A DNA stretch of 63,935 nucleotides, filler included, from an uncultured Methanoregulaceae archaeon (GTDB taxonomy: Archaea; Halobacteriota; Methanomicrobia; Methanomicrobiales; Methanospirillaceae), in assembly GCA_964530035.1 (NCBI GenBank). It is 3 parts of 3 records of this genome, joined end to end, with 100 filler letters (N's around TTAATTAATTAA, not from the genome) between each part and the next. Parts side by side here need not be neighbours in the genome. Positions count along the whole stretch, not along the records: positions 1 to 28,550 come from CAZGXZ010000008.1; 2 more parts are not named here. One strand, written 5' to 3'. The notes under the pieces are model-generated. The model searched no databases. It worked only from the letters and a program-made list of their open reading frames with translations, and had not been told where the DNA came from. Made by a program: the position numbers and the translations under genes. The stretch's first letter is position 1, and each line of letters opens with the position of its first letter. Shown piece after piece: positions 7,768 to 51,159 of this stretch.

Positions 7768-8835
7768 TCACCCCTCCCCGCCGGCCCCTGGTATCACGTG
7801 GACGGCCGAGGCCTTGAAGGTCGCAAAGACCGCGGACCCGGGCGCAAGCTCCAGGTCGTGGCAGCTCTCCCTCGTCAGGAGGGCGGTCAGGGGGAAGCCC
7901 GCGTCGAGGACGACCCGGACGGTGCTCCCCGAGGGGACGAGCCCGGAGACGGTCCCGGCGAGGCAGTTGCGGGCGCTCGAGGAGAACGGGGCCTTCGACA
8001 GCACCACGTCCTCGGCATGGAGGGTCGCGACCACGTCCCCGGTCATACCCGAGGCCGCGTGGAACACCGTGCCGGAGGACGTGGTGATGGTCACCAGGTT
8101 GCCCCTTTTCGAGGACCTCCCCCTGATGATGTTCCCTATGCCGAGGAACTCCGCGACGAAGGTGTCAGCCGGGTGGAGGAACACTTCCGCGGTCTCCCCG
8201 GCCTGCACGACCCGGCCGTCCCTCATGATTGCGATCCGGTCGGCAAGGGCGAAGGCGTCCTCGAAGTGGTGGGTGATCTGGACGACCGTCGTGCCGGTGA
8301 GCCGCCTGACCCGGGACAGCTCTGCCCGCATCCGCTCCCGGGTCCTGCCGTCCAGGGCGCTCAGGGGTTCGTCGAGCAAAAGCACGGACGGCCTGAGTAC
8401 GAGGGCCCGGGCGAGGGCGACCCGCTGCTGCTCCCCTCCGCTCAGGGTGCCGGGGTACCGCTTCCTCAGGTGTCCGACCTCCATAAGGGCGATGGCATCC
8501 TCAACCCGCCGCCGCCGCTCATCCCCGGGGACCTTCCTGTGGCGGAGCCCGAAGCCGATGTTGGCCTCGACCGTGAGATGGGGGAACAGCATGTAGTCCT
8601 GGTAGACCATCCCGATGTTCCGCTCCCTGGGATCGACCGTGGTGACCTCCCGCCCGTTGAGGAAGACCCGCCCCGAGTCAGGTGCGTGGACCCCGGCTAT
8701 CGTCTCAAGGAGGACGGTCTTACCCGCTCCCGTGGGACCGAGGATGACGAAGTACTCGTTGTCATGCACCGTGAGCGACACGTCCCGTACCGAGAAGTCG
8801 CCGAGGGTCACGGACAGGGAGTCGAGGACCAGCAC
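7768..8835 (-). CDS. modC: Molybdate/tungstate ABC transporter ATP-binding protein with C-terminal TOBE
   Basis: GPTGAGKT, LSGGEQQR, LLLDEP, SARNCL...FKASAV. Confidence 0.92.
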   Translation of the reverse strand: MLVLDSLSVTLGDFSVRDVSLTVHDNEYFVILGPTGAGKTVLLETIAGVHAPDSGRVFLNGREVTTVDPRERNIGMVYQDYMLFPHLTVEANIGFGLRHRKVPGDERRRRVEDAIALMEVGHLRKRYPGTLSGGEQQRVALARALVLRPSVLLLDEPLSALDGRTRERMRAELSRVRRLTGTTVVQITHHFEDAFALADRIAIMRDGRVVQAGETAEVFLHPADTFVAEFLGIGNIIRGRSSKRGNLVTITTSSGTVFHAASGMTGDVVATLHAEDVVLSKAPFSSSARNCLAGTVSGLVPSGSTVRVVLDAGFPLTALLTRESCHDLELAPGSAVFATFKASAVHVIPGAGGEG

Positions 8836-8849
8836 CCCGCCCTCACCGC

Positions 8850-9623
8850 CTAGAAGACATGCACGCCCCGGTCGAGGTATTCCACTGCACAGAGCGTTAC
8901 GAGCGAGATCAGGACGAGGATGGTCGCCGCGGCCACCGCCTGGGACAGGTCACCGGTCGAGATGTTAAGGTACAGCGCGATTGGGAGCGTCTCGGTCCTC
9001 ATGGTGGTCGCACCGGCCACCATCAGCACGGCCCCGAACTCGCCCATTGCCTTCGCCCACGTGATGACCGTCCCGGCGAGGAGGCCCTGGCGCGCCATCG
9101 GAAGCGTGACCTCCAGGAAGGCGCGGGTCTCGGTGCAGCCGAGAGTACGGGCCACGTACTCGTACCTGGGGTTGACGGCCGAAAAGGCGGACCGCAGCAC
9201 CCGGACAAGGTACGGGAGGTTCACGAACACCTCGGCGACGATGATCCCGAGCGGCGTGAATATGACGGCGAAGCCAGCCTCCTGGAGCGCCCTGCCGGGA
9301 GCGGTCGTCCCGAAAAAGAGAAGGAGGGCGATCCCGGCGACGAGCGGGGGAAGCGTGAGTGGGAGGGTGAGGGCGAGGTTCGCGGCCCGCTTCCCGGTGA
9401 AATCGTACCTGGCCAGGGCATAGGAGACCGGGACCGCCATGGCGATGCAGGCAAGGGTCGATGCGATGCTCGTCGCGAGGCTCAGCAGGATGGCGAACCG
9501 GATCTCCGGGCTCGCGAGGCTTGCGGCAAGGGCCGGCAGGGGGGAGTACATCACGAGCCCGAGGAGGACGACGGTGATGCAGAGGAAAACGAGGTACGTC
9601 AGTATAATGAAGGTCCTTCGCAT
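8850..9623 (-). CDS. modB: Molybdate/tungstate ABC transporter permease
   Basis: LPLTLPPLVAG, ARTLG, MGEFGA. Confidence 0.92.
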   Translation of the reverse strand: MRRTFIILTYLVFLCITVVLLGLVMYSPLPALAASLASPEIRFAILLSLATSIASTLACIAMAVPVSYALARYDFTGKRAANLALTLPLTLPPLVAGIALLLFFGTTAPGRALQEAGFAVIFTPLGIIVAEVFVNLPYLVRVLRSAFSAVNPRYEYVARTLGCTETRAFLEVTLPMARQGLLAGTVITWAKAMGEFGAVLMVAGATTMRTETLPIALYLNISTGDLSQAVAAATILVLISLVTLCAVEYLDRGVHVF

Positions 9624-9640
9624 CTGCCGCCTCCCTGGGT

Positions 9641-10144
9641 TTAAAGGCCCTGCCTGTCAGCGGAAAGGGCCCTCTCCGCCAGGATACTGGTCTCCCGGAT
9701 CCGTTCGATATGCTGCGCCGAGACCCAGCCTGACACGGCATGGGGGATGCTGTCGAACTCGGGAACGTAGGGCTTGATGTCGAGGACGGGTGTCCCGTCG
9801 AGGAGGTCCATCCCGGTGACATGGAGGACGCCGCCGTCGACCCTCGTAAGGGCGACGTAGGATATCCCGATCGGGTTCGGGCGGTTGTAGTGGCGGGTCG
9901 CGAAGATGCCGTGCTCAGCCTGCCCGTCGGAGAGGGGGAGTTCGGTCAGGGCACGGCGTTCCGCCCGGTCGAAATGCGAGAGCAGGATAAGGTGCGAAAA
10001 CCCCCCGATGCTCGCGAGGCCCTCCCGGTACTCGGGGAAGACCTCAACGGTCCCTTCCACCCGTGAGAAGCTGCTCTGGAACGGGGGTGCGCCCGCCGTC
10101 CTGAAGGGCGAGCGGGCGATGCCTATCGGTGTGAAGTCGGTCAT
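9641..10144 (-). CDS. tsaA: TsaA/TrmO (YaeB) family SAM-binding protein
   Basis: HGIFATRHYNRPNPIGIS and DLLDGTPVLDIKPY. Confidence 0.9.
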   Translation of the reverse strand: MTDFTPIGIARSPFRTAGAPPFQSSFSRVEGTVEVFPEYREGLASIGGFSHLILLSHFDRAERRALTELPLSDGQAEHGIFATRHYNRPNPIGISYVALTRVDGGVLHVTGMDLLDGTPVLDIKPYVPEFDSIPHAVSGWVSAQHIERIRETSILAERALSADRQGL

Positions 10145-10983
10145 GGCTTCACACCCGCGAACTGGGAGTCAGGGTAGACCGGGAATCCATGCTCCGCGAA
10201 GACCTTCCTGCCCTCGTCCGATGCCACGAAGTCGACGAATTTCCGGGCTTTGTCCGTGTCTTTCGTGAAGGTGGTGACCCCGGCCGGGACGATCAGGACC
10301 ACGTTGTCGGCGGTGGGGATGGTGACCGTGTCCACCTTGTCGGGGTTGACCTGGTCAAGGGTGAGGATGGCGGCATCGGCCTGCCCCGTGTTCATGATGA
10401 CCGTGAGCTCGTTGATGGTCGGCGTCCGGGTGACGACGTTTTTCCCGACGGCCGCGGTGATGTTGTACTTCGCGAACATCTTCGCCCCGGCCTTGCCGAT
10501 CGCGGTTGCGTTGGCATCACCGAGGGCGACCTTGAGCCCGGGTTTCGCAAGGTCCTGGATAGTGTGTATCCCGTCAGGGTTGCCCTTCCGGACGACGATC
10601 ACCGGGACATGGTACGCGATCAGCTGGGACGAGTTGACGAGTCCCTGGTTCTTCGCCGTGGCGAACTCGACGGTGGAGCCCGGGACGAAGACATCGCCCA
10701 GTCTCGTCAGGTTCATCTGGGTGATGAGCACCCCGCTTCCCCCGTAGGTGTAATGGACGGCGACCCCGGTCCTGTTGGTATAGAGCGCCCCGATCTCGTC
10801 CATCGGGGCCTTGAGACCTGCTCCCGCGTACACGAGGATGCTTCCGCCGGCCTGGCCGGCAGTGGCCGGGGCCGTTGTCGTCACGGCGGGGCTTGCAGGT
10901 GGCTGCGTGGTCGTACAGCCCGCGGTACAGAGTGCGACCGCGATGAGGAGCACGGCCAGCAGGCACAGGTGTTTAATTTTCAT
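10141..10983 (-). CDS. modA: Molybdate/tungstate ABC transporter substrate-binding lipoprotein
   Basis: Lipobox-like TAGC, VYAGAGLK, YGGSG, VRKGNP, AIGKAG. Confidence 0.92.
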   Translation of the reverse strand: MKIKHLCLLAVLLIAVALCTAGCTTTQPPASPAVTTTAPATAGQAGGSILVYAGAGLKAPMDEIGALYTNRTGVAVHYTYGGSGVLITQMNLTRLGDVFVPGSTVEFATAKNQGLVNSSQLIAYHVPVIVVRKGNPDGIHTIQDLAKPGLKVALGDANATAIGKAGAKMFAKYNITAAVGKNVVTRTPTINELTVIMNTGQADAAILTLDQVNPDKVDTVTIPTADNVVLIVPAGVTTFTKDTDKARKFVDFVASDEGRKVFAEHGFPVYPDSQFAGVKP

Positions 10984-11326
10984 TGTTAACAATATGAGAA
11001 AATAAAATAAAATTGTTGTTAAATTGATTGGGCATTCAGGCATTCACAGGGGCCGGACAGGTGCCGGTACCGCATCCTGGAGAGCAATAAATTCCCTGTT
11101 TTCACCTTTTCATCGCATATATTGCCGTTTTCATCAAATGTCCCGCCTTTTCGGGGTCTGTTACCGGGACCCCTGTCCCGTGGGGATGGGTGACTGGTGT
11201 TGTGTCCCAGGTGTTCACCCGGGTCCTCTGGTACAGGGTCATACAGAAACCGGAGAACCCACCCTTCCACCGGAGGTTTCGGATACCTGCACACGTGTTT
11301 TCATCCTATTCCGTTAACCTGGGATG

Positions 11327-11385
11327 AGTTAGATATATATAACATAATGTTATACATTTCTCACAGTTGTGAGAAATACATAACG
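11327..11385. promoter_or_regulatory. Three tandem TGT-N12-ACA-like boxes; putative operator of the adjacent XRE regulator
   Basis: AGT-N12-ACA 11327-11344, TGT-N12-ACA 11348-11365, TGT-N12-ACG 11368-11385, immediately upstream of ATG 11399. Confidence 0.65.
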
Positions 11386-11398
11386 TAAGAGACACGAC

Positions 11399-11821
11399 AT
11401 GCTGCCACATACCTCCCCCCTGTTCACACCCCGTGCCTGGACCACGGGACTGACCGTAACCGGAATACTCCTTATCGGGGTTGGAATGGTCCTGATAGCC
11501 ACCCCGGCCGGGGACACCCCGGGGTCCCTCGGACCCAGCCTCGCCTCCATAGGTGGGGTACTCCTGGCGATCGGGCTGCTCCGGTCAGCACAGGGCGACA
11601 AGGAACGCCTCCAGGACGAACGGACCAGGAAGATCGGGGCCTATGGCCTCTCGTGGTCCTGGTTCCTGACCTTCGTCGTGCTCTTCGCGGTATTCTGGGC
11701 CGATTACCTCCATGTGTGGTCACCGGACGCCGGCGTCCTCAGCGTCATCCTCATCCTCCTGATGGGGATTTCGGCAAAAGCATTCCAGTGGTGGCTCTTC
11801 AGGAAGGGAGACGTTCCATGA
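11399..11821 (+). CDS. DUF2178-like membrane protein
   Basis: Four TM helices with QDERTRKI motif; coupled to the downstream XRE gene. Confidence 0.7.
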
Positions 11822-12042
11822 GGACCCGCATCCGCGAGTTCAGGGTACTCCGGGAGATGACCCAGGCCGACCTCGCGGACGCTGTCGGGGTCAGGAGGGA
11901 GACGATCGTCTTCCTCGAAAAGGGAAAGTACAACCCCTCGCTCAAGCTCGCCCACGATGTCTCTGTCGTCCTCGGCACGACCATCGACGCGCTGTTCCTG
12001 TTCGATGATGACGAGTCTGCCAGGAAAAAGGAAGAAGGATGA
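11818..12042 (+). CDS. XRE-family HTH transcriptional regulator
   Basis: [32 protein letters not shown]. Confidence 0.93.
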
Positions 12043-12439
12043 GTCCTGGGTGGACCGGTGCCACCTCTCCGTGATCAGGCATCGCTGCACGGGCTGTCCT
12101 TGTCCCGCCGGACGAACGGGGTCCCGTCTTCGGCAGCGCCTGCAAACGTGTCTGAAACGGCCCCTGCCCTGCTTTCATCGTCCGCTCCCGGGCCTGCAGC
12201 CGAGATGTCGACGGTATAGATGACCTTCTCCTTCTGGTCCTCCCCGCCACCGGGTGGTGAACCTTCCATATACGGGAAAGAGTATATAACCTCAAAAAAC
12301 TGCTCATCACGTACCCGGGCTACGGTCTCTGATCCCTGGCAGAGTTCCCGCCTGGTGGCGGGAATGCAGAAACTGGCTGCAAAAGGGATTTTTTCAGGAC
12401 GGAAGGGGCCAGGTCCCGGGAAAACCGGGAGTGGACGCC

Positions 12440-13009
12440 ATGTCAGGCAGGCAGGTCATCCTTGAAAGCATCGTACGGGCCAGGCTGCAACCTGGAGAAC
12501 AGCTGTACGCGGTCCTGGACGCGGCCAGAAACCCATCCTCCCTTCTTGAGTGCATCCGCGAGCGGGACCTGCCATCGTACTCCCTCTTTTCGGGCAGGCT
12601 GGCACGGCGGCTCGACCATGTCGCTCCCTTCCTGGTCAGTGCAGGGACAGACCCGGGCTTCCTTTCACTCTGGGAAGAGCATTTCGGGGAAAACTACGGG
12701 GTCCTCCTCCTTTCCGGGGCCCCTCCCGGAGAACTCTGGCGGCACCTCAGGAGCGTGTTTGTTTCCTCTGACGAGGACGGGAACGAGTTTTTCTTCAGGT
12801 TCTACGACCCCCGGGTCCTCGGCCTGTTCCTGCCGACCTGCACCCCCCACGACCTGTCGGCGTTTCTTGGTCCCATTGGCGCTCTCTTTACCGCGACCCG
12901 GTTCCCCGGCATGGTCCTGTGCGTCAGGAGGACTCCTGACGGGGTCGTGACCGAGCGTTTTCATGTGACCCGTATCGCAGAGGAAGCAATTCGCATCGAG
13001 GTGGTATGA
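12440..13009 (+). CDS. DUF4123 domain protein (T6SS effector chaperone Tap-1/TEC-like)
   Basis: LYAVLDAAR...SLF.G......APFLV...L.RHLRS......G.EFFFRFYDPRVL..FLP, the DUF4123 signature. Confidence 0.88.
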   Translation: MSGRQVILESIVRARLQPGEQLYAVLDAARNPSSLLECIRERDLPSYSLFSGRLARRLDHVAPFLVSAGTDPGFLSLWEEHFGENYGVLLLSGAPPGELWRHLRSVFVSSDEDGNEFFFRFYDPRVLGLFLPTCTPHDLSAFLGPIGALFTATRFPGMVLCVRRTPDGVVTERFHVTRIAEEAIRIEVV

Positions 13010-13371
13010 TGCGGATCCGGAGGGAACAGATGGAGGCGATGTCGCAGGCGGTGGAGGAGGAGTTCACCCGGGAGATGGTCCGCCACCTGGCGACGTCGTT
13101 TGCGACGTACCTCGAACGCCACGGGATACCGGAAGACGCCCTGTTTGACCTTGTCGAGGCAGGCACCGCCGATGCGAAGCGTCACGGCCTTTTCTACCCC
13201 GGCCACATCAGGAAATACCTTGAAATCGTCGTCATGACCGGGCCGGGACTCCGGGAGGGAGGGGAGTTTGCCTGGATACCGGAACTCCTGGAGTCCGACG
13301 GCCCCGACGGCGAGACAAAGCTCCAGAGGATCAACGAACGGCTCCTCTTCGAGTGGGAAGGGATTGTGTAA
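13006..13371 (+). CDS. Helical protein resembling the C-terminal half of long DUF4123 chaperones
   Basis: MRIRREQMEAM...F...MVRHL...A.RHG......Y.......G......FAWI.ELL; ATGA overlap with the DUF4123 gene. Confidence 0.7.
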   Translation: MMRIRREQMEAMSQAVEEEFTREMVRHLATSFATYLERHGIPEDALFDLVEAGTADAKRHGLFYPGHIRKYLEIVVMTGPGLREGGEFAWIPELLESDGPDGETKLQRINERLLFEWEGIV

Positions 13372-14742
13372 ATGGCGGGGGATGACGAGTACCGGTACGC
13401 GACGAGCCCGCCGAACTGCCCGGCGCTGAAAAAAGCAAACGAGGCGATGAAAAAGTGCATCCTGAAGATGATCGAGGACAACCCCGGCCTCGAGCAGGAC
13501 GTCATCGACCCGGACACCGGCGAGTTCAAGCGGTACATCTCGATGGACCAGAAAAAGGACAAAAAGTACGCGAAGTGCCGCAAGGTCTGGATGGACACGT
13601 ACAAGGCGGCGGGCGGGGAGTCCTCGCCGGTTGACCAGGGCCTCGCCCACGGCGAGCTGAGCCGGCAGTGCCAGTGCCCGAAGGCAAACGGTTCGGGCTC
13701 CCTCGGAGTCCTCGTGAAGGACGACACGACCCAGGAGCCGATACCAGGTGCAAAGGTCAGGATCTCCGGCCCGGTCACGAAGCAGGGCACAACCACGGAT
13801 GGCGGAAGGATCGCATTCGAGAAGGTCCCGGCCGGGAAGTACCGGGTCAATGCATACAAGGAGCCGTACAAGGAAAAATGGGTGAACGCGACGGTCAAGG
13901 CGGACAGCACGGAGCAGGTCGAGGTCCTCCTTACGATGGAGGAGCCCGGGAGCGTGCTCGTGAAGGTCGTCGGGGAGACATGGTTTTCAAACTGGGTGGC
14001 GACCAGTACTGATGAGATTGTCAAGGCTTTTTTGGGGAAGAAAAGGACACGGCCTGTGGCAGATGCCGACGTCGAGGTGAAGGAGCGGGTCGCAGACACC
14101 CCGAAGACGTTCCCCCAGACGAAGACCGAGAAGACCGACAAGGAGGGGTATGTCCTGATCAAGGGCCTGAGGCATGGTTCGTACTGGGTCTCCGGGAAAA
14201 AGGGGAACTGGCCGACGGACAAAAAACAGTGCGTCATCCATAAGCCCGGGCGGGCGGACCCGGTCGAGCTCACCATACTGAGCCGGAAGAAGTTCGTCCT
14301 CCAGATCATGAAGGTCTCATGGGGTGAGGTTGGCACTCCTTTCATCGAGGCAAAGGTCGTCATCGGCCGGATGAATGTGGAAATTCGTGATGTTGAACGG
14401 GGAATAACCGGGATGTATACCGTCTGGTTCACAACAGCGGGAGTCGAGGTTTCACTCGAACCGAAGCTTCCAGCAAAGGGTGTGTCTACGAAGGCACCAG
14501 GGAATCCCAGTCATTTCGAAACACCGAGGTTCTTTGCCAATAAAGAGGTGACCGCGAATTCGTTTGCGAACAAGAACCAGAAGATGAACATATCCACTGC
14601 AGGGGTTACCTTCGTCTTTTTTGACCTCATTACCGTGTACCAGGTTGACATGGGAGAAACGGACGAGGACGTCCAGTTTCCGGGTGTTGGTTTCACGAGG
14701 GGTCGTTTCGACATGACCTTCAAGGGCAGCAAGGCAACTTAA
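13372..14742 (+). CDS. Putative effector-like protein with two transthyretin/carboxypeptidase-regulatory-like domains
   Basis: VLVKDDTTQEPIPGAKVRI.GP...G.T..GG...FEKVPAGKYRVNA and PVADADVEV...KTDKEGYVLIKGLRHGSYWV; no signal peptide; ATG directly follows the upstream TAA. Confidence 0.6.
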   Translation: MAGDDEYRYATSPPNCPALKKANEAMKKCILKMIEDNPGLEQDVIDPDTGEFKRYISMDQKKDKKYAKCRKVWMDTYKAAGGESSPVDQGLAHGELSRQCQCPKANGSGSLGVLVKDDTTQEPIPGAKVRISGPVTKQGTTTDGGRIAFEKVPAGKYRVNAYKEPYKEKWVNATVKADSTEQVEVLLTMEEPGSVLVKVVGETWFSNWVATSTDEIVKAFLGKKRTRPVADADVEVKERVADTPKTFPQTKTEKTDKEGYVLIKGLRHGSYWVSGKKGNWPTDKKQCVIHKPGRADPVELTILSRKKFVLQIMKVSWGEVGTPFIEAKVVIGRMNVEIRDVERGITGMYTVWFTTAGVEVSLEPKLPAKGVSTKAPGNPSHFETPRFFANKEVTANSFANKNQKMNISTAGVTFVFFDLITVYQVDMGETDEDVQFPGVGFTRGRFDMTFKGSKAT

Positions 14743-14825
14743 AATGGCCTGACCCGTGTGCATAAGCAGTGCCCTGTAAGAATTCAGGATTTTTTGGCTT
14801 TTTTCCCGAAGAAACAAAAAAGGTT

Positions 14826-16139
14826 TCAGGGACCCGCCGTTCCCGCCCCGGCAGTCTCTCGCGGCTGTCCCCCGGCCTGGTTCATCCTGTCGATGGCGTT
14901 CAGGATCGAGACCAGGAGGAAGAGCAGGAGCCCGTTGACGATCACGATGGCGGCGATGACGTTTCCCGGGATGGCCCCGGGCATGAACATGGAGAGACCG
15001 AAGGCGATCCCCACGATGTTCAGGACGGTCTGGGTGATGTTCAGCTTTTTTACGATGGGAAGCACGGGGGTGGCAGCAGCACCGGACCTGTCCAGGATGG
15101 CGGGGAGGAACCGCTGGACCATGGGGACGACGCCCCCGATGATGTTGAGGAGCCCGAGGAGGAGCTGGATGCTGCCGGTCAGGACCCCCGGGACGACGCA
15201 GGAGAAGACTCCGAGGGCTGCGAACACGACTCCGAGGAGGGTCATGGCCCACGACCGCCTGAACTGGCCGACCGGGGTGCTCCCGAGCGCCATCATCTGC
15301 AGCGACATGATGACCAGCATAAGGCCGAGCTGGCCGTCAGGGGAGAAGGGGATGAGCCCCAGGTTCACCGGGAAGAGGAGGACGCCGAGGAGCACGAGGA
15401 GGACGCCGAGAAGTGCGATGACCGCAAGGGAAAGGGGAAACGAGGTCTCGCCGAAGAGGGAGAACCCCGGCGTTTCACCGGTTCCACCCGTTCCCGCGGA
15501 GGTCTGTGCCGCGACCTCTCCGGGCGGGTACCTCCTCCTGGTCTCCTGGATGCAGATCGCGAGGTAGAAGATGCAGAAGCCATACACAAGGAGCAGGACC
15601 GCCGTCTGCGGGTTGGTCGTGATACCGGGGAAGAGTGTCACGAGGCCGGCCAGGACCGAGAGGACGTACACGAGGGCAGCGGAAAGCGTAAGGTGCCTGA
15701 GCACCCCGGGGACCTTCAGCCACGTCTTCGCCCGGTCCTTCATGACCAGCAGCTGCATGAGGAGTGCTGCCCCGCCTACTGCCAGGAGGAGGCCCGAAAG
15801 GACCCGGACGACCCCTGTCAGCGTCCCGGGGATGAAGCAGGCGGCCATCCCGATGACCGCCGTGCATATCCCGAGGATGATGACCATCCACGACCGCCGG
15901 AGGTCTCCGAAGGGAGTCTTGCCCATCGTGATGGTCTGGATGGAGACGAGCACCAGGAACAGGCCGTACGTGCTGTCTGGGGTGTAGGGCAGTTCCCCCG
16001 TATGGATCTTCAGGAGGAGAAAGGCGAAGAGGGTCATAAAGACCCCGAAGATGACCAGGACGACGACTTCGAGGTCTAGGTCAAGTTCCTTCCGTGGCGC
16101 CTGGCTGGGCGGATTGCTTTCTTTGTTTCCTGGTGACAT
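14826..16139 (-). CDS. Polytopic membrane protein with internal duplication
   Basis: Two homologous halves (MGKTPFGDLRRSW / LGSTPVGQFRRSW); GGAGG RBS. Confidence 0.8.
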   Translation of the reverse strand: MSPGNKESNPPSQAPRKELDLDLEVVVLVIFGVFMTLFAFLLLKIHTGELPYTPDSTYGLFLVLVSIQTITMGKTPFGDLRRSWMVIILGICTAVIGMAACFIPGTLTGVVRVLSGLLLAVGGAALLMQLLVMKDRAKTWLKVPGVLRHLTLSAALVYVLSVLAGLVTLFPGITTNPQTAVLLLVYGFCIFYLAICIQETRRRYPPGEVAAQTSAGTGGTGETPGFSLFGETSFPLSLAVIALLGVLLVLLGVLLFPVNLGLIPFSPDGQLGLMLVIMSLQMMALGSTPVGQFRRSWAMTLLGVVFAALGVFSCVVPGVLTGSIQLLLGLLNIIGGVVPMVQRFLPAILDRSGAAATPVLPIVKKLNITQTVLNIVGIAFGLSMFMPGAIPGNVIAAIVIVNGLLLFLLVSILNAIDRMNQAGGQPRETAGAGTAGP

Positions 16140-16415
16140 CCTGTTCCTCCTCCCGGACGGTCCGCGGGCCGGGAAACCGGTTGCTCTCATCAGGCCGGCC
16201 CCCCCGGAGTCCCTGCCCGGACCATCTTTACGTGACAGGGTTTAGGCAGCCGGCAGTATAAGTCAGTTGCGAGGTGACGTCAGCCACGGCCTTTTTCACA
16301 GCCTTCCCGGTATGACCGGCCCCCGCCATTTCAACACCGGTCAGCCTTGTGCTGGCCGTTATTCAGCGCTTATGATCGTTAAAAAGGAAACGCAGGATTC
16401 AGTCTGCCCCTGGTT

Positions 16416-17252
16416 TTAGTAGTAGTTCCCGCCCTTCTCGTAGGCGGCCCTGCGGTCACGTGCCATCTGCATGAACTGCTCCTCACCCTCCTTTGCCCCG
16501 CTGGCGTACAGCCTCCACATCTCGGTGAACGGGTGTTCGGGCACGACGATGACCCCCTTCTTCTGTGCGACCTGGTCGAGGACGTACCGTGCCGTCTTGT
16601 CGGCAGGATATGCGTCCTCAGGGATCTTGATCTCGTTGTAGACCGTACCGTCCTTCCCCTTCTGGAAGATGGGCGTTGCGATGTTTGCCGGGCAGATAAC
16701 CGAGAACTGGATGTTCTTCTCCGCGTACTCGTACCTCAGGCATTCGGAGAGCCCGGTGACCCCGAACTTCGTCAGGGAGTAGAGGGCCTGGAACGGCGGG
16801 GGGACGAGGCCGGCAATCGAGCTCGTGTTCACGATATGGCCAAAGCCCTGCTTCAGCATGATCGGGACGGCGGTGTGGACGCCGTAGATAACACTCCAGA
16901 CGTTTACATCGATGATGTTCTTCCAGTCGTCGATGGTCGCCGTCTCGAACTGCAGGGTCCCGCCGATCCCCGCGTTGTTGAAGAGCATGTCAAGCCTGCC
17001 CGCTTCCGCAGCCGTCCCCTTGATGGCGGTCTCCACCTGATGCTGGTTCGTAACGTCCGCGATGAGGGTGTGGACGCGGCCCCCGTGCCGGGAGAGTTTC
17101 TTCGCAGCCTCCTCGACCTTTTCACGGCTCCGTCCGAGCATGTACACGGTGGCACCGCGGTTCAGGAGTTCCTCGCTCAGTGCATACCCGATGCCGGAGT
17201 TGGCACCGGTCACGATACAGACCTTGTCCTTGAAGTATGCTGCATTGTCCAT
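16416..17252 (-). CDS. Short-chain dehydrogenase/reductase
   Basis: TGANSGIG, NNAGI, NTSS, YSLTK (YxxxK). Confidence 0.95.
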   Translation of the reverse strand: MDNAAYFKDKVCIVTGANSGIGYALSEELLNRGATVYMLGRSREKVEEAAKKLSRHGGRVHTLIADVTNQHQVETAIKGTAAEAGRLDMLFNNAGIGGTLQFETATIDDWKNIIDVNVWSVIYGVHTAVPIMLKQGFGHIVNTSSIAGLVPPPFQALYSLTKFGVTGLSECLRYEYAEKNIQFSVICPANIATPIFQKGKDGTVYNEIKIPEDAYPADKTARYVLDQVAQKKGVIVVPEHPFTEMWRLYASGAKEGEEQFMQMARDRRAAYEKGGNYY

Positions 17253-17474
17253 GATGTTCACCTGGCTGTGGGCTTTGAGAGGTTTCTCTGATGTTAACCG
17301 GTTGAGGTCGTCCTGGTATTTAAACAAGGGCATTTCAGCCCGGCAGGACGGTGGGAGGTATGAAGGGGGCTGAAGAGGCAGGATTGGGATTTTTTCCTCC
17401 TTATCGCCACTCCGGAGAAAACCGCCATGAAAGCTGCAGTCTCCTGAAAAAAAAGAGGCTGGCTGAAAAATGGG

Positions 17475-18272
17475 TCAGTTCATGAACAGAGCTTTCCTGA
17501 CCTCATCAGGGCTCATGCCGCTTGCGATCCGGTTACTGTACAGCACTTTTGCCGCCGCTGCATCGATTCCGGACATCTGGGTCACCGTAGCCCCGTCCGG
17601 GTTGAAGATGCTGTCAGGATAGGTATAGTTCTCCCCGTTGAAGTTGAGGACCTCGAGTATCGCCCTCAGTAGGTAATGCTTCCGTTCGTCACCCTTCAGG
17701 TCTGAGTTGACATAGACCTGGGTCCCCGAGGTACTGATATAGTACTTCACCTGCCCACCGACCGTCACGTTCTTCCTGATGGTGTCGCGGTTGACCTCCC
17801 GGAGCGTTGCCTCGGGGAGGAGACTGACGGTAACCCCGCTGATCTTCTTCAGGGCGAACTCCTCCTCGGGCAGGTGGAGGTTCGGGGCGAGGTTATTGAA
17901 CTCCCGGTTGAAGGCGACGACTGTTTTGAAGTCCTCGTCGGTGGCCTGCCCTTCGAGGCTCATCCGTAGGTTGCCGGACTGCTTGTAAATCCGCGAATAC
18001 TCCGTCCCAATGATGGCGACCAGGTGCTTATTGACCTCGTCGGTGGTGTAGCTCTTCCTTTCGGGAGTAGAGAGGGGGGTCGGGACGGCAGTCACGGGTG
18101 AAATGGTATCTCCCTGAAGTGTCAACGGGTGGGAGGTTACCGGCAGTCCCGGGGTTGCGGGAGGGACCGGGGAGGAGGTGACCGGGACGGGCCCTGACGG
18201 GGTATCCATGCACCCGGCGGCCAGAATGACCAGCAAAAGGCAGATCCCGGGAACAATAACGAGACGTTTCAT
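17475..18272 (-). CDS. DUF2927-like lipoprotein
   Basis: Lipobox LAAGC, Pro/Thr linker, RKHYLLRAILEVLNF.G.....PDSIFN. Confidence 0.65.
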   Translation of the reverse strand: MKRLVIVPGICLLLVILAAGCMDTPSGPVPVTSSPVPPATPGLPVTSHPLTLQGDTISPVTAVPTPLSTPERKSYTTDEVNKHLVAIIGTEYSRIYKQSGNLRMSLEGQATDEDFKTVVAFNREFNNLAPNLHLPEEEFALKKISGVTVSLLPEATLREVNRDTIRKNVTVGGQVKYYISTSGTQVYVNSDLKGDERKHYLLRAILEVLNFNGENYTYPDSIFNPDGATVTQMSGIDAAAAKVLYSNRIASGMSPDEVRKALFMN

Positions 18273-23642: not shown

Positions 23643-24494
23643 TCACAGGCTGAACCCGGACCTCGAGGCGTACTGCTTCGAGAGTTTCGCGACCATCCCG
23701 GAAACGGTCGCCTTGTCGGTGAAGACGCCGGATACCGAAGGCTTTGGAATGAAGTCATCGCTCCAGCCGCGTTCCTCCTTGACCGAGATGCCGAACTCGG
23801 TACCGAAGGTCCCCATGGCGTACCCGACGCCTGCGGAGGCGTCAGGCTTCACGTCGAAGTTGTAGTTCAGCTCGGCAGGAGTATCTGCAGTGGCTGCGAC
23901 CGTCCTCGTCCGTGCCGATGAGGACTGGGCGGCTGACGTGACGCCCTGGCTCATCGATTTCGCATAGACGACGTTGCAGAATGCCGGGAACCAGAAACTC
24001 TCGGACGGACCGAACGGGCAGGCGATGACATCGGCGGTACTGGTAATCTCGCCCATGTTGTCCACGGTGACCGACTCTGCGGCCTGGGCAATGCTGCCGG
24101 TGTTTGCGTCGGTCGCATAGGTGAAGGTCTTCGTTGATTCGACGTTGAAGAGACCGACCGCCTTGTCCCTGGTGTCGGTGTCGAAGGTCTTGGTCTCGGA
24201 GACGTACCCGCCGTTCGTTTCCGTCATCTCGGAGTAGGCGGTGGTCGAACGGACCTCGTGGAGGTCGAGGAGACCTGTGTGGAGGCCGCCGCTACCGCCG
24301 CCTGCGGGGTCATACCCCGTCGTCCACTGGAGGGCCTGCGAACCTGAGTATGAACCGATCGCCTCGACTGACGAGGCCTCCGAGAAGACCTGGTTTTCCG
24401 GGGTCTGGTTCGGGAGCCGGTCTGCCGCGGCGGTCCCGGCGAGCATTACGAGGAGAATAACAACTATGAGGTTAAACCATGCTTTTTTTTTCAT
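23643..24494 (-). CDS. Secreted Ser/Thr-rich protein, sheath protein MspA-like (short paralog)
   Basis: Signal peptide then DRLPNQTPENQ; CPF...PAFCNVV; C-terminal YASRSGFSL; family assignment from recall. Confidence 0.65.
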   Translation of the reverse strand: MKKKAWFNLIVVILLVMLAGTAAADRLPNQTPENQVFSEASSVEAIGSYSGSQALQWTTGYDPAGGGSGGLHTGLLDLHEVRSTTAYSEMTETNGGYVSETKTFDTDTRDKAVGLFNVESTKTFTYATDANTGSIAQAAESVTVDNMGEITSTADVIACPFGPSESFWFPAFCNVVYAKSMSQGVTSAAQSSSARTRTVAATADTPAELNYNFDVKPDASAGVGYAMGTFGTEFGISVKEERGWSDDFIPKPSVSGVFTDKATVSGMVAKLSKQYASRSGFSL

Positions 24495-24686
24495 CGACGA
24501 CCTCCAAAGGCGGAAGGGGTGAATGTGGAACAGAGGCTTCTTTTTCCGTCATAAAAAACCTGCTGAAATGAATTGGAGGCCGGGGAAAGAAGGAAATTTT
24601 ACTGGTGTAATTCAGGTACGAACGAACGGCTATACAGGGCTCTCTTGGACGGGAAGAAAAAAGGAGAATGCCGTGGCTCTTCAGGA

Positions 24687-25802
24687 TCACAGCCCGAACC
24701 CGGACTTCGAGGCGTACTGCTTCGAGAACTTCGCGACCATCCCTGCCACCGTCGCCTTGTCGGTGTAGACGAGCGTTGCAGACGGCGTCCAGTTCCCGTC
24801 GCGGCCCTCCTTGATCGAGACCCCGAACTCTGTCCCGAAGGTCCCCATGGCGTACCCGACGCCTGCGGAGGCGTCCGGTTTCACGTCGAAGTTATAGTTC
24901 AGTTCGGCCGGAGTATCGGCACTGGCAGCGACCATCCTGACCTGTGCGGACGACGACTGTGCGGCGGAGGTCACGCCCTGGCTCATCGACTTCGCATACA
25001 CCACGTTGCAGAACGCCGGGTAGATCTCGCTCTGGGAAGGCCCGAACGGGCAGGCGACGACATCGGCGGTCGGCGTCGGGGCGCCCATGTTGTCTGTTGC
25101 GACCATCTCGGAAGTCTGGGCGATGCTGCCGGTGTTTGCATCGGTCGCATAGGTGAAGGTTTTCGTTGATTCGACATTGAACAGACCCACCGCCTTGTTC
25201 CGGGTGTCGGGGTCGAAGGTCTTCGTCTCGGAAACGTACCCGCCGTTCGTCTCCGTCATCTCGGAGTAGGCGGTTGTCGCCCGGACTTCATTGGGGTCGA
25301 GTATGCCTGTGTGGAGGCCGCCGTGGCCGGAAGTCTGTGCCGGGGTGACCTCGCTCGGGCCGTTACCTGTCAGGAGTTGGCCAAGGTTCTGGTACGTTGC
25401 CCCTGAGACCAATCCCCCGGCGTTTGGTTTCGTTAAAAGGGATTCTGGAATATACAGGGCGGTAATATACAACCCGTTATTAGACGTGGTTTCAAGCGAA
25501 CCTCCCTGGGAACGGAGTTCGTTTTCCAACAATGCAATATCTTCACTATTCGACTCGATTCCCTGACCTCCCGACAGCACATATCCATAGATTGCCTGCC
25601 CACCTACGGTGACCGGGTCATACCCCGTCGTCCACTGCAGGTCCTGTGACCCGGAGTACGACCCGATCGCCTCGACCGACGAGGCCGCCGAGAAGACCTG
25701 GTTCTCGGGTGTCTGGTTCGGGAGCCGGTCGGCGGATGCCGTCCCGGCGAGCAGTACGAAGAGAATGAAGACTGAGAAGAGGAAAGATGCTGGTTTTTTC
25801 AT
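24687..25802 (-). CDS. Secreted Ser/Thr-rich protein, sheath protein MspA-like (long paralog)
   Basis: Near-identical core to 23643-24494 plus an insert of about 90 aa; GGAGG RBS before ATG 25802. Confidence 0.65.
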   Translation of the reverse strand: MKKPASFLFSVFILFVLLAGTASADRLPNQTPENQVFSAASSVEAIGSYSGSQDLQWTTGYDPVTVGGQAIYGYVLSGGQGIESNSEDIALLENELRSQGGSLETTSNNGLYITALYIPESLLTKPNAGGLVSGATYQNLGQLLTGNGPSEVTPAQTSGHGGLHTGILDPNEVRATTAYSEMTETNGGYVSETKTFDPDTRNKAVGLFNVESTKTFTYATDANTGSIAQTSEMVATDNMGAPTPTADVVACPFGPSQSEIYPAFCNVVYAKSMSQGVTSAAQSSSAQVRMVAASADTPAELNYNFDVKPDASAGVGYAMGTFGTEFGVSIKEGRDGNWTPSATLVYTDKATVAGMVAKFSKQYASKSGFGL

Positions 25803-25983
25803 GATAGACCTCCGCTGATGAAGGAGCGGAACGTGAACTAAAAACTTCGTTTTCCTGTCATAAAAGGCTGCTGAAACAAATTGGGGCCCGGGAAATGGCC
25901 ACATGCGGAGGAGCCGGGGAGATCGTGGCAGCCCTCTCCCCCTCCCGCAGGGTATATCAGCCCTGGGCTGGAACATGGGCAGC

Positions 25984-26424
25984 ATGAGAGCAATCATCTG
26001 TGCCGGGGTCGTCGTGGCCTGCATGGTGCTGGCCTGCGGGTGCGTGGTAAACACCTCTTCGGAAAAGCCCGCGGAAAGCCCTGCAAAGACCCCGGACCTC
26101 GTCGGGAACTGGTCGGGGACGATGGACGGGTACGTCGGGGGGATGGGCTTCAACCACTATCCGGGAGCGGTCATGACCATGAGGGTCACGGAACAGCAGG
26201 GCCGGGTGTTCATGGGCAGTTTCTTCTTCGCGAACACGACCGGAGCCACGAAGACCGTGGAGTTCGGCGGCGTGGTGGACCATGACGGCATGACCGTGAC
26301 CATCGTTGAGCAGAACGGTGGTTACAGCTGGGGCACGCTCCTCGGCCCCGACGAGATCGAGCTGGTCCACGCCGACGACCAGGACCCCTCGGACGTTGCC
26401 ATCGACTCGCTCAAAAGACGGTAA
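25984..26424 (+). CDS. Putative lipoprotein, beta-rich hypothetical protein
   Basis: LACGC lipobox-like motif; PDLVGNWSG. Confidence 0.7.
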   Translation: MRAIICAGVVVACMVLACGCVVNTSSEKPAESPAKTPDLVGNWSGTMDGYVGGMGFNHYPGAVMTMRVTEQQGRVFMGSFFFANTTGATKTVEFGGVVDHDGMTVTIVEQNGGYSWGTLLGPDEIELVHADDQDPSDVAIDSLKRR

Positions 26425-28650: not shown

Positions 28651-28669
28651 GCCATGGCTATCGTATGCA

Positions 28670-28940
28670 GGGGGTTTGGGGGGCGGCAGCCCCCCGGTTC
28701 TCATCCCTCTCATCTTCTGCAGGTTCAAGATGAAAACCAAAAATCGGCTCTACTGAAACACACATGAACCGGAGTTCACACCGGAACCATGAAAAACACC
28801 ATCCAAAATCTCCTTATTATGAGGCCGTTTTTAGCATTTTCACAGGAAATCCTACGATCAAAATGGCAGCGGATGGAGATCTCTCATACGTGGAGTGAAT
28901 ACCATTGAAGATATGGAGGATTATACAGAGCCGTTGTTTG
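28670..28940 (+). repeat. Dispersed non-coding repeat, copy A
   Basis: Colinear with 44026-44298; shares AAAATCTCCTTATTATGAGGC exactly. Confidence 0.8.
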
Positions 28941-47703: not shown

Positions 47704-50700
47704 TCAGCCGAACTCCTCTCCCGGTGACTGATGAGCCTCCCCACCTTCATCGAGAGGGATACCGTCCTCCTCCTGGAACACGGTGACCGCCGCCGCGACA
47801 AGCGGTTCCAGGTCGCGGTGAGGAAGTAACGGGAAGGGTACCAGCCTGTCACACTCGACCCAGTACACCCATCCGCTCACCGCCTTCCGGGTCATCTGCG
47901 AAACGGCATGGCAATAGGTGCTGACTGACACGCGGTATTTCTCAACGAGATCGGCGTCCTCCTCGTCACCCGCCCCGGTCTTGAGGTCGATGACGACCAG
48001 GCTCCCGTCTGGCATCACCTGGAGCCGGTCGATGACTCCGCTGACCTCGACACCGGAAATGGTGGTGACGAACGGGAACTCGGTAAATACCCTTGTCGCA
48101 TCACGTATGAGGGAGTGCTGAAGGAAACACCGGTAATATCCATCGATCCGTGCGGCATCGGTATCCGGGAGACCGTGCCTGCGACATACCCCGGCGGCAT
48201 CCCTGCCCTCAAAGACCTCATGTACCGCCGTGCCGAAGGTAGTTTCAGGCGAGCCAGGAAGGTTTCTCAGGACACTCCGGGTGGGGACGCCTGGCGGGAC
48301 ACCCGGCTCTCTCTTTTTAAGGTCAGTGTCCTCGATTTTTGACACGGAAATCCTTGTCAGCGGTCGCGGCCCGGACGTTGTCGCCGCCAGCGCGACTCTT
48401 GCAGGCGAGTCCGGCACATTGTCCGGTATCATGACCTGGCCGGGTGACCGGCACCGTTTTTCAGCGGTGAATATTCCGGGGTCGGTGATGAACCTGACAC
48501 CGACCGTTGAACCGTCAGGGGCTTTCACCGGGACACAGCCGCCGGCCGGGTCAGCACCCTGGCTGTACAGGAGCGACAGCAGGAAGTCAGTGCCGGAGTT
48601 CCCACTGGCGGCTTTTTCCCGTGCATCAGGCTTCACCATGCCTGATAGGACCAGGTAGTCGCGGGCCCTCGTGAACGCGACATAGAGGAGCCGGCGGTAC
48701 TCGGCCGTCTCCTTTTCATGAAGTTCCCGGGTGAGCATGGCGAGGACCGGTGTCGGGTGCACCTCGTGGTCCCTGTCAGGGTCCGGCGCCTTCACACCGG
48801 CTATCGCGGGTTCATCCCCGAACATGAACGGTTTGGACGAGTGCTTTCCCGGGTGGGAGCATTCAGGGACCACCACCACCGGGAACTCAAGCCCCTTGGC
48901 CGCATGGATGGTCATGATGTTGACCCGGTCACGGACAGGGTCTTCAGGCTGGCCCTGGCCTGACCGCTCCTCTTCATCGATGGACCGGGCAAGCCCGTCG
49001 GAGAACACTGAAAGGTCCTGGCCCCTGGTGAGGACGGTGTCCTCTGTGGTCATGTGCACGACCTTCTCGATGTTTGCAAGCATCTGCGGCCCGTCGGGGA
49101 GGGCGGCATATACCGTGTACACTCCTGACTCAGACAGGATGCGCCTGATAAACGGGGTCAGAGGCTCCCTGCCACGGTATGCAAGCCAGCGGGAGAGGAT
49201 CCGGATGACCCGGGATACCCCGGTATCAGCGGGGTGGTGCCCTGCATACTCCCGGACCTTTTCCCAGAGTGTCCTCCCCCCTGCCATGGAGACAAGGAAC
49301 AGGGTGTCGTCAGGGAGACCGAGGAACGGGGACCGGAGCGCCCCGAGGAGGGCCATGTCGTCATGGGGCCGGCAGAGGAATGCAAGGGTGCTGGTAAGGT
49401 CCATGACCTCCTGCCTGGCAAACAGGCCGGTCCCTGCATGGACATGGAAGGGGATCCCGTACCGTGAGAGGGCGGCGGTCCAGGCGGGAAGGTGTGTCCG
49501 TCGTGCAAGAAGGAGGGCGATATCGCCGTACCCTGCCGGCCTGCCGGTCATTGCCCCCGTCCCGTCCGGTTCCCAGACCATGGGGCGCTCCTTTTCTGCG
49601 AGCACCTGGATCCGTCGTGCCACGGCGTCCGATTCAGCATCATAGGACTTCTTACCCTCCTGTTCGGGGACCGCGAGGAACTCGACTCCTCCCGTGGTCT
49701 CCTGGCGCATGTCGCAGGCGGCTACCGGCTGGTACTCAAACTCCCATGGTTTCTTGGAAGGGGGAAAAATCAGGGAAAAGAATGCGTTTGCAAAGGTCAC
49801 CAGTTCGGGGGCGCTCCGGAAGTTCGTGTCGAGGTTCACCGTATGGCCCTCGAACTCCGTCGTGATGAACTCCGCGGCCTCGCGGAACCGTGTCACGTCG
49901 GCGTTCCTGAACAGGTATATGGACTGTTTCGGGTCCCCGACGATGAACAGCCGGTTGTTCCTGCCTCTCACACCGGTAAGGATACTCAGGATCATCCCGA
50001 ACTGTGAAGGGTCCGTGTCCTGGAACTCGTCGACCAGGATGAAGCGGTACCTGGCCGAGAGGTCCCGGGCAACCTGCCCGTCCGAGTCAAGGAGCCTTTG
50101 GGCATACCATACCAGGTCGTCGAAGTCGAGGGCCCCGCACTGCTCCTTGACGGAGTCAAGGTCCCTGCAATAGGCATCGAACAGGACCCGGATGTCATGC
50201 AGGTAAAGGACCGCCGTTTCGTGGTGACGGGAACCGGGGGAAACCTCCATCTCCAGCAGGGGGGCCAGGTCTTTTGCGGTGTCCCTTACAATCCTCATGC
50301 ATTCCTTGTAGGACGGGAAGTCATCCCCGGCCCACCGCGAAGCGCTCCCGCCGGTCAGCTGGATGCCTGAAACAGATTTTAATGCTCCTGCAAGCCCGTC
50401 CAGGTCAGACGAGGGGTCTGCAAGGACAAGGAGGTCTTCCCGGGCGCCGTGCAGGGTGGCAATGGCGCGGTCAGACCGGTCGGTGTTCCGCTCCATGAGC
50501 AGGAAGAGCCGGTCAAGGCTCTTCCTGACGAGCGGGTCCCTCAGCGCCTCCCCGACCCGCCTTTCGCGTTCCCGCCCGGAATAGGCAGACCAGGCCTCCT
50601 GTATTTCCCGGGGGTCCTGCCCGAGAAGCTGGAAAAAACCGGTACTCCTCCCGCGGTCGTCATAGAGCGCTTCAAGGATGTCCCTGAGTGTTGTCCTGGG

Positions 50701-51159
50701 TGTGCAGGCGAGGACCCGTTCAAGCGCCCCGCTGTCCTCGCAGCAGGTCACTCCCCGCACGAGCCTGTCGAACGAGTCCGCCCTGACCTGTGCAGCCTCA
50801 GTCTCGTCCATGACGGCAAAGCCCGGGATGATCCCTGCCTTTTCCGGGTACTCCCGCAGCACCGTCGCACAAAAGGAGTGAAACGTCATGACCGGAGCGA
50901 CGATCAGTTCTTCCTCAAGCACCTGCGGCGCGAGGTGGGAGAGTACTCCGGCCTCCTCCCTGATTCGGCTCCTCATTTCTGCTGCTGCCTTGTCGGTGAA
51001 CGTCAGGGCAAGGACCTCCCCGATGGACGCCCCCTGTTCCCGGAGCAGGGCGAGATACCGCTGGACGAGCACATGGGTCTTCCCGGTGCCCGCCCCGGCG
51101 GTGACGACCATGCTGTGCCCATGGCCCCTGATGGCCTTCTCCTGGCCTTCGGGCGTCAT
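47704..51159 (-). CDS. addA: AddA-like UvrD helicase with C-terminal RecB-type nuclease
   Basis: AGAGTGKT, LTFTDKAA, VDEFQD, VGDPKQSIY, MTIHAAKGLEF, LLYVAFTRA, GVIDRL, IDLKTG. Confidence 0.9.
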   Translation of the reverse strand: MTPEGQEKAIRGHGHSMVVTAGAGTGKTHVLVQRYLALLREQGASIGEVLALTFTDKAAAEMRSRIREEAGVLSHLAPQVLEEELIVAPVMTFHSFCATVLREYPEKAGIIPGFAVMDETEAAQVRADSFDRLVRGVTCCEDSGALERVLACTPRTTLRDILEALYDDRGRSTGFFQLLGQDPREIQEAWSAYSGRERERRVGEALRDPLVRKSLDRLFLLMERNTDRSDRAIATLHGAREDLLVLADPSSDLDGLAGALKSVSGIQLTGGSASRWAGDDFPSYKECMRIVRDTAKDLAPLLEMEVSPGSRHHETAVLYLHDIRVLFDAYCRDLDSVKEQCGALDFDDLVWYAQRLLDSDGQVARDLSARYRFILVDEFQDTDPSQFGMILSILTGVRGRNNRLFIVGDPKQSIYLFRNADVTRFREAAEFITTEFEGHTVNLDTNFRSAPELVTFANAFFSLIFPPSKKPWEFEYQPVAACDMRQETTGGVEFLAVPEQEGKKSYDAESDAVARRIQVLAEKERPMVWEPDGTGAMTGRPAGYGDIALLLARRTHLPAWTAALSRYGIPFHVHAGTGLFARQEVMDLTSTLAFLCRPHDDMALLGALRSPFLGLPDDTLFLVSMAGGRTLWEKVREYAGHHPADTGVSRVIRILSRWLAYRGREPLTPFIRRILSESGVYTVYAALPDGPQMLANIEKVVHMTTEDTVLTRGQDLSVFSDGLARSIDEEERSGQGQPEDPVRDRVNIMTIHAAKGLEFPVVVVPECSHPGKHSSKPFMFGDEPAIAGVKAPDPDRDHEVHPTPVLAMLTRELHEKETAEYRRLLYVAFTRARDYLVLSGMVKPDAREKAASGNSGTDFLLSLLYSQGADPAGGCVPVKAPDGSTVGVRFITDPGIFTAEKRCRSPGQVMIPDNVPDSPARVALAATTSGPRPLTRISVSKIEDTDLKKREPGVPPGVPTRSVLRNLPGSPETTFGTAVHEVFEGRDAAGVCRRHGLPDTDAARIDGYYRCFLQHSLIRDATRVFTEFPFVTTISGVEVSGVIDRLQVMPDGSLVVIDLKTGAGDEEDADLVEKYRVSVSTYCHAVSQMTRKAVSGWVYWVECDRLVPFPLLPHRDLEPLVAAAVTVFQEEDGIPLDEGGEAHQSPGEEFG

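Follow-up and report, generated by a model that had tools for sequence, protein, structure and literature searches.

A bacterial-type DUF4123 cassette in a methanogenic archaeon and its possible link to a resident phage-tail-like injector

The DUF4123 adaptors of the bacterial type VI secretion system (T6SS) are, in the account of Colautti et al. 2024 (PMC11582642), two-part proteins whose conserved N-terminal lobe binds a C-terminal motif of VgrG and whose variable lobe binds the effector. In the TecT/co-TecT pair, according to the same account, each lobe has a gene to itself, and TecT attaches to a C-terminal extension of its PAAR. For archaea, phage-tail-like injectors and PAAR proteins are already in print according to several published accounts (PMC12180501, PMC8651086, PMC9230969). 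These include phage-tail-like protein translocation structures (extracellular contractile injection systems, eCIS) noted for anaerobic methanotrophic (ANME) archaea (PMC12180501) and PAAR in 7.8% of archaeal genomes (PMC8651086). A survey published in 2020, covering 11,495 reference genomes, reported a DUF4123 adaptor in no archaeal genome (PMC7714669). Searches of the literature on DUF4123 gave no archaeal cassette of this kind; supplementary tables, which lay outside those searches, might list isolated archaeal hits. Here we describe such a cassette, consisting of three genes (g1, g2 and g3), in an uncultured Methanoregulaceae archaeon (GCA_964530035.1). The DNA analysed, called the window below, is a stretch of 63,935 nucleotides made of contigs C8, C9 and C101 of one metagenome-assembled genome (MAG; G000), and its positions 1-28550 are all of C8. 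A sister MAG, G001, represents a second species of the genus. The cassette is very probably a bacterial T6SS split adaptor with its cargo, acquired horizontally. For the whole explanation, in which the cassette also serves an injector resident in the same genomes, we put the probability at roughly 0.42.

The cassette, its partners and its origin

The three genes (Table 1) follow one another closely. g1 and g2 share an ATGA (13006-13009), and no base separates the g2 stop (TAA) from the g3 start (ATG; 13369-13374); both junctions are read from the sequence. The TATATAA box upstream, a candidate promoter, would give a leader of ~125 nt and lies inside a block that is identical in the two species. 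It is flanked, together with the start of a 64-codon open reading frame (ORF) described below, by an imperfect 26-nt inverted repeat (12243-12268/12337-12362, 73% complementary), which could be a regulator site or an inversion scar. Beyond the g3 stop, two oligo-T runs look like a putative archaeal terminator. An earlier note, made from the sequence alone, had seen here three translationally coupled genes behind a TATATAA box, the first with a DUF4123 signature, and these readings hold. The g1 protein matches Pfam PF13503 (DUF4123) at E 9.5e-24 and 84.3 bits (cut-off 25.8) over residues 22-140, spanning profile positions 1-118 of 119, and the match was confirmed by a six-frame search of the genome. 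All family-invariant residues, taken as columns of a 36-sequence DUF4123 alignment that includes the archaeal protein, are kept: D27, P63, G83, F119-R125 (FRFYDPR), G144 and P145. A match to the Tle1 chaperone Tla1 in NCBIfam was sub-threshold. A profile search of the PDB gave nothing at E 0.01, with a weak match to the solved DUF4123 protein 9r8g_B at E 0.24. That protein has 318 aa and g1 has 189 aa; judged from length and domain span only, g1 appears to be a DUF4123 protein with the conserved lobe only. Translation could also start at a GTG (12431), but it is the 189-aa form that is present in the public collection. Many short bacterial DUF4123 relatives carry an N-terminal FHA domain.

The product of g2 gave no match in Pfam, NCBIfam, PHROGs or the PDB, only two close relatives in a word-index search, and unnamed bacterial clusters only in the Atlas. 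A local jackhmmer search placed its domain in 49 of 79 bacterial DUF4123 loci. Strong matches were found in 48 loci; the domain lies on the same strand and at most 700 nt downstream of DUF4123 in 29 of these, is fused to DUF4123 in a single ORF in one (L067), and is elsewhere in the locus in the other 18. Because g2 belongs to a conserved family of DUF4123 partners, the cassette is interpreted as a split adaptor. By analogy, g1 and g2 together would fit the split-adaptor form, with g2 as the putative co-adaptor that would bind the effector.

The bacterial relatives give the context in which such genes usually occur. Twelve relative loci, with 102 proteins, were annotated. In nine of the twelve, a gene for VgrG and/or PAAR lies at most 6 kb away, as a rule immediately upstream of DUF4123, and several also encode Hcp, TssG, ClpV or VipA/B. 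The typical order is VgrG/PAAR, DUF4123, a g2-like gene, an effector and an immunity gene, and the downstream effectors include an AHH nuclease with Imm11, Rhs, and a lipase-like protein with an ankyrin protein. In the archaeon g1 is not directly downstream of vgrG or PAAR; upstream of it are a native membrane protein and an HTH regulator.

The third gene, g3, is the candidate cargo. Residues 114-187 form a strong CarboxypepD_reg/prealbumin-like domain (Pfam, E 4.2e-15). A second beta domain, at about residues 228-296, has a direct match (227-274) below cut-off, and the aligned region of a homologue, P0125, matches CarboxypepD_reg at E 1.5e-5. Of the two transthyretin-like domains claimed in the earlier note the first therefore stands, while the second is supported only indirectly by these two matches. 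The same note's Cys motif, QCQCPK, is confirmed with cysteines 100 and 102, as is its statement that the protein has no signal peptide: no hydrophobic N-terminal or membrane-like segment was found (Kyte-Doolittle 19-residue maximum 1.48). Between the two species residues 1-300 are 93% identical with a dN/dS of 0.10, and residues 301-456 are 51% identical with saturated synonymous sites. This is the pattern of a C-terminal domain swapped between species, as in polymorphic toxins, and we consider it a putative effector or targeting domain. The domain had no match in Pfam or the PDB and no usable match in the Atlas. Among 1.84 billion representative proteins it had four matches, namely the G001 copy, two fragments and one spurious repeat protein. 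A homologue of g3, 38% identical across the N-terminal region and both beta domains, is encoded in a Phycisphaerae MAG (locus L004). For whole g3 a word-index search gave only two close relatives, and neither the metagenome scan nor PHROGs gave any. A weak NCBIfam match to an S-layer family was far below its cut-off. AlphaFold2 models of g3 (4-row alignment, mean pLDDT 46) and of its residues 225-456 (5-row alignment, pLDDT 48) left residues 276-456 and the C-terminal domain, respectively, unmodelled.

What the adaptor would grip in bacteria can be seen in the proteins encoded just upstream of DUF4123 (VgrG or PAAR). In 30 of 75 bacterial loci these share a short C-terminal tail with the conserved pattern A-[AS]-x-x-G-x-[APG]-[FLI]. 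A profile built from these 30 tails was run over all 45,657 six-frame segments of the source genome, and its best match (E 0.02) was a minus-strand segment, 12078-12455, directly upstream of g1, with the tail match itself ~170 nt upstream of g1. It falls at the end of the 64-codon ORF. With a profile of the seven tails of the closest clade this ORF ranks second (E 0.099), and by BLASTP it aligns with the PAAR of locus L005 (Pirellulaceae) over the tail only (8/20 identical, E 0.017). It is kept in G001 with 89% amino acid identity, 13 of 192 nucleotides differing, and a dN/dS of 0.36 that comes from only these 13 changes. We hold with moderate confidence that the ORF is probably an inverted relic of a cognate PAAR gene. 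The earlier note had recorded neither this ORF nor the partner family of g2. PAAR-like pieces upstream of its ATG in a MAFFT alignment are not claimed (BLASTP E ~1). Both the tail motif on VgrG/PAAR and the g2 co-adaptor family are unnamed elements of general interest for T6SS biology.

As to origin, the closest relatives of g1 have 100% identity (seen on 11 contigs), 87% and 81%, and the next best has 49%; those that bear a name are bacterial. The relative at 81% belongs to a third lineage with intact g1 and g2, the latter at 90% identity. Among 581 g1 relatives, one genome per species, the best 79 loci are all bacterial by title. DUF4123 was found in two of 61 archaeal relatives of the host, both of this genus, and in none of the other 59. 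In the phylum it was found in one of 401 genomes, the window's own, and in none of the other 400. In a quick maximum-likelihood tree of 82 g1 rows, with SH-aLRT support only, the three archaeal rows form one long-stemmed clade (SH-aLRT 100) nested in a 16-row clade (SH-aLRT 98) that holds nine Planctomycetota rows. From these comparisons a single acquisition by the ancestor of one methanogen genus, from a Planctomycetota-type donor, is well supported. The suggestion in the earlier note that this is a horizontally acquired bacterial T6SS-type module was thus borne out, the closest relatives being Planctomycetota-type T6SS loci and none of the 59 relatives having DUF4123. A metagenome scan with the three archaeal g1 sequences found only two distant relatives. 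A scan of viral contigs gave DUF4123 relatives only twice, both remote (30-32% identity), and none for g3, so that no viral vehicle for the cassette was seen in it. A check of the borders of the cassette for repeats or att-like sites gave nothing convincing.

The host chromosome and selection on the cassette

The source MAG comprises 2.36 Mb in 229 contigs and is 86% complete with an estimated contamination of 0.03; G001 is 77% complete. The host is an archaeal methanogen. The source MAG carries the archaeal ribosomal protein S24e, for which a control search matched only four archaea, and two copies of MtrA, for which it matched only two methanogens. mcrA (PF02249) was not found in the source MAG or G001 and was found in four of four other relatives tested, and its lack in both MAGs is probably an assembly or binning gap.

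A MAG in 229 pieces, and a cassette whose every close relative outside the genus is bacterial, might suggest a bacterial fragment joined to or binned with archaeal contigs. We regard this as extremely improbable. The cassette lies inside the 28.5-kb contig C8, and the nearest N is at 28551, where that contig ends. A 9.3-kb contig of G001 is collinear with C8 9721-18701 at 85-90% nucleotide identity. When 41 genomes of the family were searched at the DNA level, both flanks matched other genera of this archaeal family at 64-85% nucleotide identity: an ABC transporter and TrmO (7790-10838), an HTH gene region (11612-12015), and a membrane protein with a short-chain dehydrogenase (SDR; 14858-17263). 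Positions 12016-14857 match G001 only, and the flanking genes are not adjacent to each other in the other genera searched. Near-identical DNA was found in 15 runs of at least six studies (digesters, sludge and wastewater), with 98% of sampled words present. Positions 9500-17500 are covered by a single contig of 15,109 bases, and positions 11416-17500 by one of 12,417 bases from another study; nine letters differ from the window in each. None of the runs with this DNA is listed as RNA. Two runs labelled RNA-Seq gave scattered low-depth contigs only and are probably DNA. The GC content, GC3 and codon usage of g1-g3 are within the genome range, like those of the flanking genes. Because of the collinear second species, the native flanks, the near-identical DNA in several studies and the spanning contigs, the cassette is part of the archaeal chromosome and not a chimera. 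The codon usage matching the flanks, the lack of a nearby assembly gap and the argument against contamination, all put forward in the earlier note, are upheld by these data.

Selection was examined between the two species, whose synonymous divergence is 0.23-0.79 and in both of which all three ORFs are intact. The dN/dS values are 0.26 for g1, 0.14 for g2 and 0.18 for g3, and five flanking native genes have values of 0.16-0.36. Purifying selection on g1-g3 is well supported, and the cassette is probably still functional. These values bear on the possibility that the genes are a leftover of one transfer, functionless and not yet decayed, as might be suspected from the apparently decayed cognate PAAR, from the finding of no T6SS sheath or Hcp, and from the confinement of the cassette to one genus. 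Such a passenger would hardly be expected to show intact ORFs in two species with ratios like those of its native flanks, an intact g1 and g2 in a third lineage, and a fully ameliorated composition. In addition, the intergenic region upstream of g1 is 94% identical between the two species, above the expectation from the synonymous sites of the neighbours. We therefore give a functionless relic little credence.

The resident injector and the use of the cassette

The earlier note had stated that no vgrG, PAAR or sheath-tube gene lies in the window, and indeed the Phage_GPD, PAAR and sheath matches of the source genome are on contigs C19 and C76 only. It had also proposed that the cassette is an orphan cargo module of an injection system encoded elsewhere. 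The system was found by a search of the whole genome: a sheath and tube on C76 and a hub, a gp5-like spike, PAAR, gp25 and Baseplate_J on C19. The cargo link, on the other hand, is unproven, with unlinked loci and a tailless PAAR. The same injection parts are intact in G001, on its contigs C5 and C3, and are mostly 87-97% identical, with a 182-aa and a 686-aa protein at 71-77%. Capsid or terminase genes were not found by Pfam among the ORFs examined near the injection genes. T6SS sheath (TssC/VipB, PF05943) and Hcp (PF05638) were found in neither of the two genomes of the genus, these being MAGs at 86% and 77% completeness. Several features of the injection locus may be recorded here. The C-terminal coiled-coil extension of the hub (~300 residues) is Lys/Glu-rich, and the hub homologue of a genome from another family (G057) matches only residues 1-391. 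A helical 182-aa protein (C19:10656-11204) is translationally coupled to the spike gene, and two large genes lie between hub and spike, a 686-aa ORF and, on the opposite strand, a NosD/CARDB beta-helix protein. A DUF2927 lipoprotein-like gene (E 5.9e-8) lies at window positions 17475-18272, 2.7 kb from the cassette, and a weak DUF2927-like gene (E 6.7e-4, below cut-off) at C76:8062-9042, directly upstream of the sheath gene; this may be a coincidence.

Because an injection system exists in both species, it is plausible that g3 is a cargo of it, and service to the resident injector is our tentative reading. In this explanation g1, as the conserved DUF4123 lobe, would grip the short C-terminal tail of a VgrG/PAAR spike as in bacteria. 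g2 would act as the separately encoded effector-binding half, analogous to co-TecT, and g3 would be the cargo, with conserved first 300 residues and an exchangeable C-terminal domain. The cognate PAAR gene would have decayed to the inverted 64-codon ORF that still encodes the tail. The g1-g2 pair may still load g3 onto the spike of the genus's own phage-tail-like injector, the receiving spike being gp5-like with a PAAR cap and encoded on other contigs, for delivery into neighbouring cells in anaerobic digesters. A bolder form, in which the methanogen arms its injector via the captured T6SS split adaptor and a free 64-residue tail protein bridges to the spike, seems rather unlikely.

A number of results weigh against the use of the cassette by this injector. 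The cassette (C8) and the injection genes (C76 and C19) do not share a contig. The resident PAAR stops where its PAAR domain does and lacks a docking tail, no protein of the injection locus is among the tail-profile matches up to E 5, and no promoter sequence common to the cassette intergenic region and the injection locus was found by blastn-short. The phage-type sheath occurs in four of the 61 relatives, the two species of the genus and two genomes of other families (G057 and G059). DUF4123 was seen only in genomes with this sheath; however, since G057 and G059 have the sheath without DUF4123, the co-occurrence amounts to a single acquisition event. The 64-codon ORF has no PAAR domain detectable by Pfam or BLASTP, and its tail match is short, at E 0.02 with the broad profile and in second rank at E 0.099 with the clade profile. 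In searches of Pfam, the PDB and representative proteins, no toxin domain could be recognised in g3. No immunity gene was seen beside it, the next gene being a convergent native membrane-protein gene. Finally, both genomes are incomplete MAGs (86% and 77%).

Several of these results would also fit a cassette that has been repurposed for a cell-internal or surface role outside any injection system, for example with g1 and g2 as folding or holding partners of g3. Purifying selection acts on the three genes with no intact cognate spike partner present: of the cognate PAAR probably only a tail ORF is left, the resident PAAR is tailless and the loci are unlinked. Neither an immunity gene nor a toxin domain was seen. 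To these may be added the weak sub-cut-off S-layer match, prealbumin-like domains being common in surface and S-layer proteins. A surface role is, however, not what a g3 without signal peptide or membrane segment would lead one to expect. g1 also retains every family-invariant residue of the spike-binding lobe, and a swapped C-terminal domain such as that of g3 is typical of delivered polymorphic effectors. Moreover, DUF4123 is described only as a VgrG/PAAR tether in the account of PMC11582642. Given these points we consider repurposing doubtful.

Whatever its present use, the locus shows clearly how a bacterial weapon-loading cassette has passed from one domain of life to another. The cassette has been kept under selection through species divergence while its cognate spike gene probably decayed, in genomes that own a different contractile injector. 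This raises the testable question of whether T6SS adaptors are re-used by phage-tail-like injection systems. Should the bolder form given above be true, no earlier case of spike loading through an adaptor would exist outside the T6SS or in archaea, and contact warfare of archaea against bacteria or against other archaea in anaerobic digesters would be indicated. g3 is a first candidate cargo for an archaeal injection system, and it comes from a biotechnologically relevant habitat, the anaerobic digester.

Table 1. Coordinates of the cassette, its upstream and downstream elements and the resident injection genes. Positions are those of the window unless a contig is named.
Feature	Position	Strand	Remarks
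g1	12440-13009	+	189 aa; short DUF4123 protein, apparently the conserved spike-binding lobe only
g2	13006-13371	+	121 aa; unnamed family accompanying DUF4123
g3	13372-14742	+	456 aa; prealbumin-like domains
g3 conserved part (residues 1-300)	13372-14271	+	helical N-terminal region, then two prealbumin-like beta domains
g3 variable C-terminal domain (residues 301-456) and stop codon	14272-14742	+	51% identity between species
64-codon ORF	12078-12269	-	last ~20 residues match the docking-tail motif; inverted relative to g1
TATATAA box	12283-12289	+	candidate archaeal operon promoter; read from sequence
Two oligo-T runs	14790-14804	.	between convergent g3 and native membrane-protein gene; read from sequence
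Phage-type sheath	C76:9231-10586		
Tube	C76:10608-11036		
GPD hub	C19:3967-5937		with ~300-residue coiled-coil extension
gp5-OB spike (base_V)	C19:11176-11856		
PAAR	C19:11875-12267		130 aa
gp25-like sheath initiator	C19:12279-12716		
Baseplate_J	C19:12557-14260		

Three further features were seen elsewhere in the window. A stretch of ~640 nt within a 283-aa and a 488-aa ORF without Pfam match (23643-26153) recurs at 70-82% identity in at least six other places of the genome and in G001, with paralogues on C27, C33, C67 and C111, and these ORFs represent, by this recurrence, a predicted multi-copy gene family. An element of ~270 nt at 28651-28920, the start of C9, is found at 80-84% identity on seven other contigs, several times at the contig end; it is probably a dispersed repeat at which the assembly breaks. 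An AddAB-like pair at 47704-54275, consisting of a 1151-aa UvrD-type helicase with a PD-(D/E)XK nuclease domain and a 1039-aa PD-(D/E)XK protein, is a predicted bacterial-type repair system in an archaeal genome.

Comparison with described systems

With the Tap/Tec adaptors of the T6SS, such as P. aeruginosa Tap as presented in PMC11582642, g1 shares the Pfam DUF4123 domain and the family-invariant residues, and the tails of the proteins upstream of its bacterial relatives fit the VgrG C-terminal motif that Tap adaptors are described there to bind. It differs in that the putative effector-binding lobe is on a separate gene, g1 having 189 aa against 318 aa in 9r8g_B.

The TecT/co-TecT/TseT/PAAR4 system of Pseudomonas aeruginosa (Burkinshaw et al. 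2018, via PMC11582642) likewise has, as outlined there, a short conserved-lobe DUF4123 protein with a separate effector-binding partner, and its cargo gene is downstream, as here. The C-terminal extension of its PAAR is the dock, and the bacterial relatives of g1 have exactly this layout. The proposed likeness of g2 to co-TecT is one of role and gene position. The archaeal case departs from that system in several respects. Searches for a T6SS sheath or Hcp gave nothing in this archaeal host, the only putative trace of the cognate PAAR is an inverted tail ORF, and the cargo is without a recognisable nuclease or other toxin domain.

Like the archaeal eCIS, the host genus has a locus with sheath, tube, hub, spike, PAAR, gp25 and Baseplate_J. 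Those systems, in the accounts cited above, are not described as using DUF4123 adaptors, whereas the candidate cargo here is unlinked to the injector and of T6SS origin.

Lastly, the Phycisphaerae MAG locus L004 (JAJDDX010000078.1) is bacterial and, unlike the archaeal cassette, has PAAR-domain and peptidoglycan-binding proteins upstream. Its contig ends inside the g3 homologue, leaving the C-terminal domain uncovered. It has the same gene order of DUF4123, g2-like and g3-like genes, and its DUF4123 protein is in the same tree clade as the archaeal g1.

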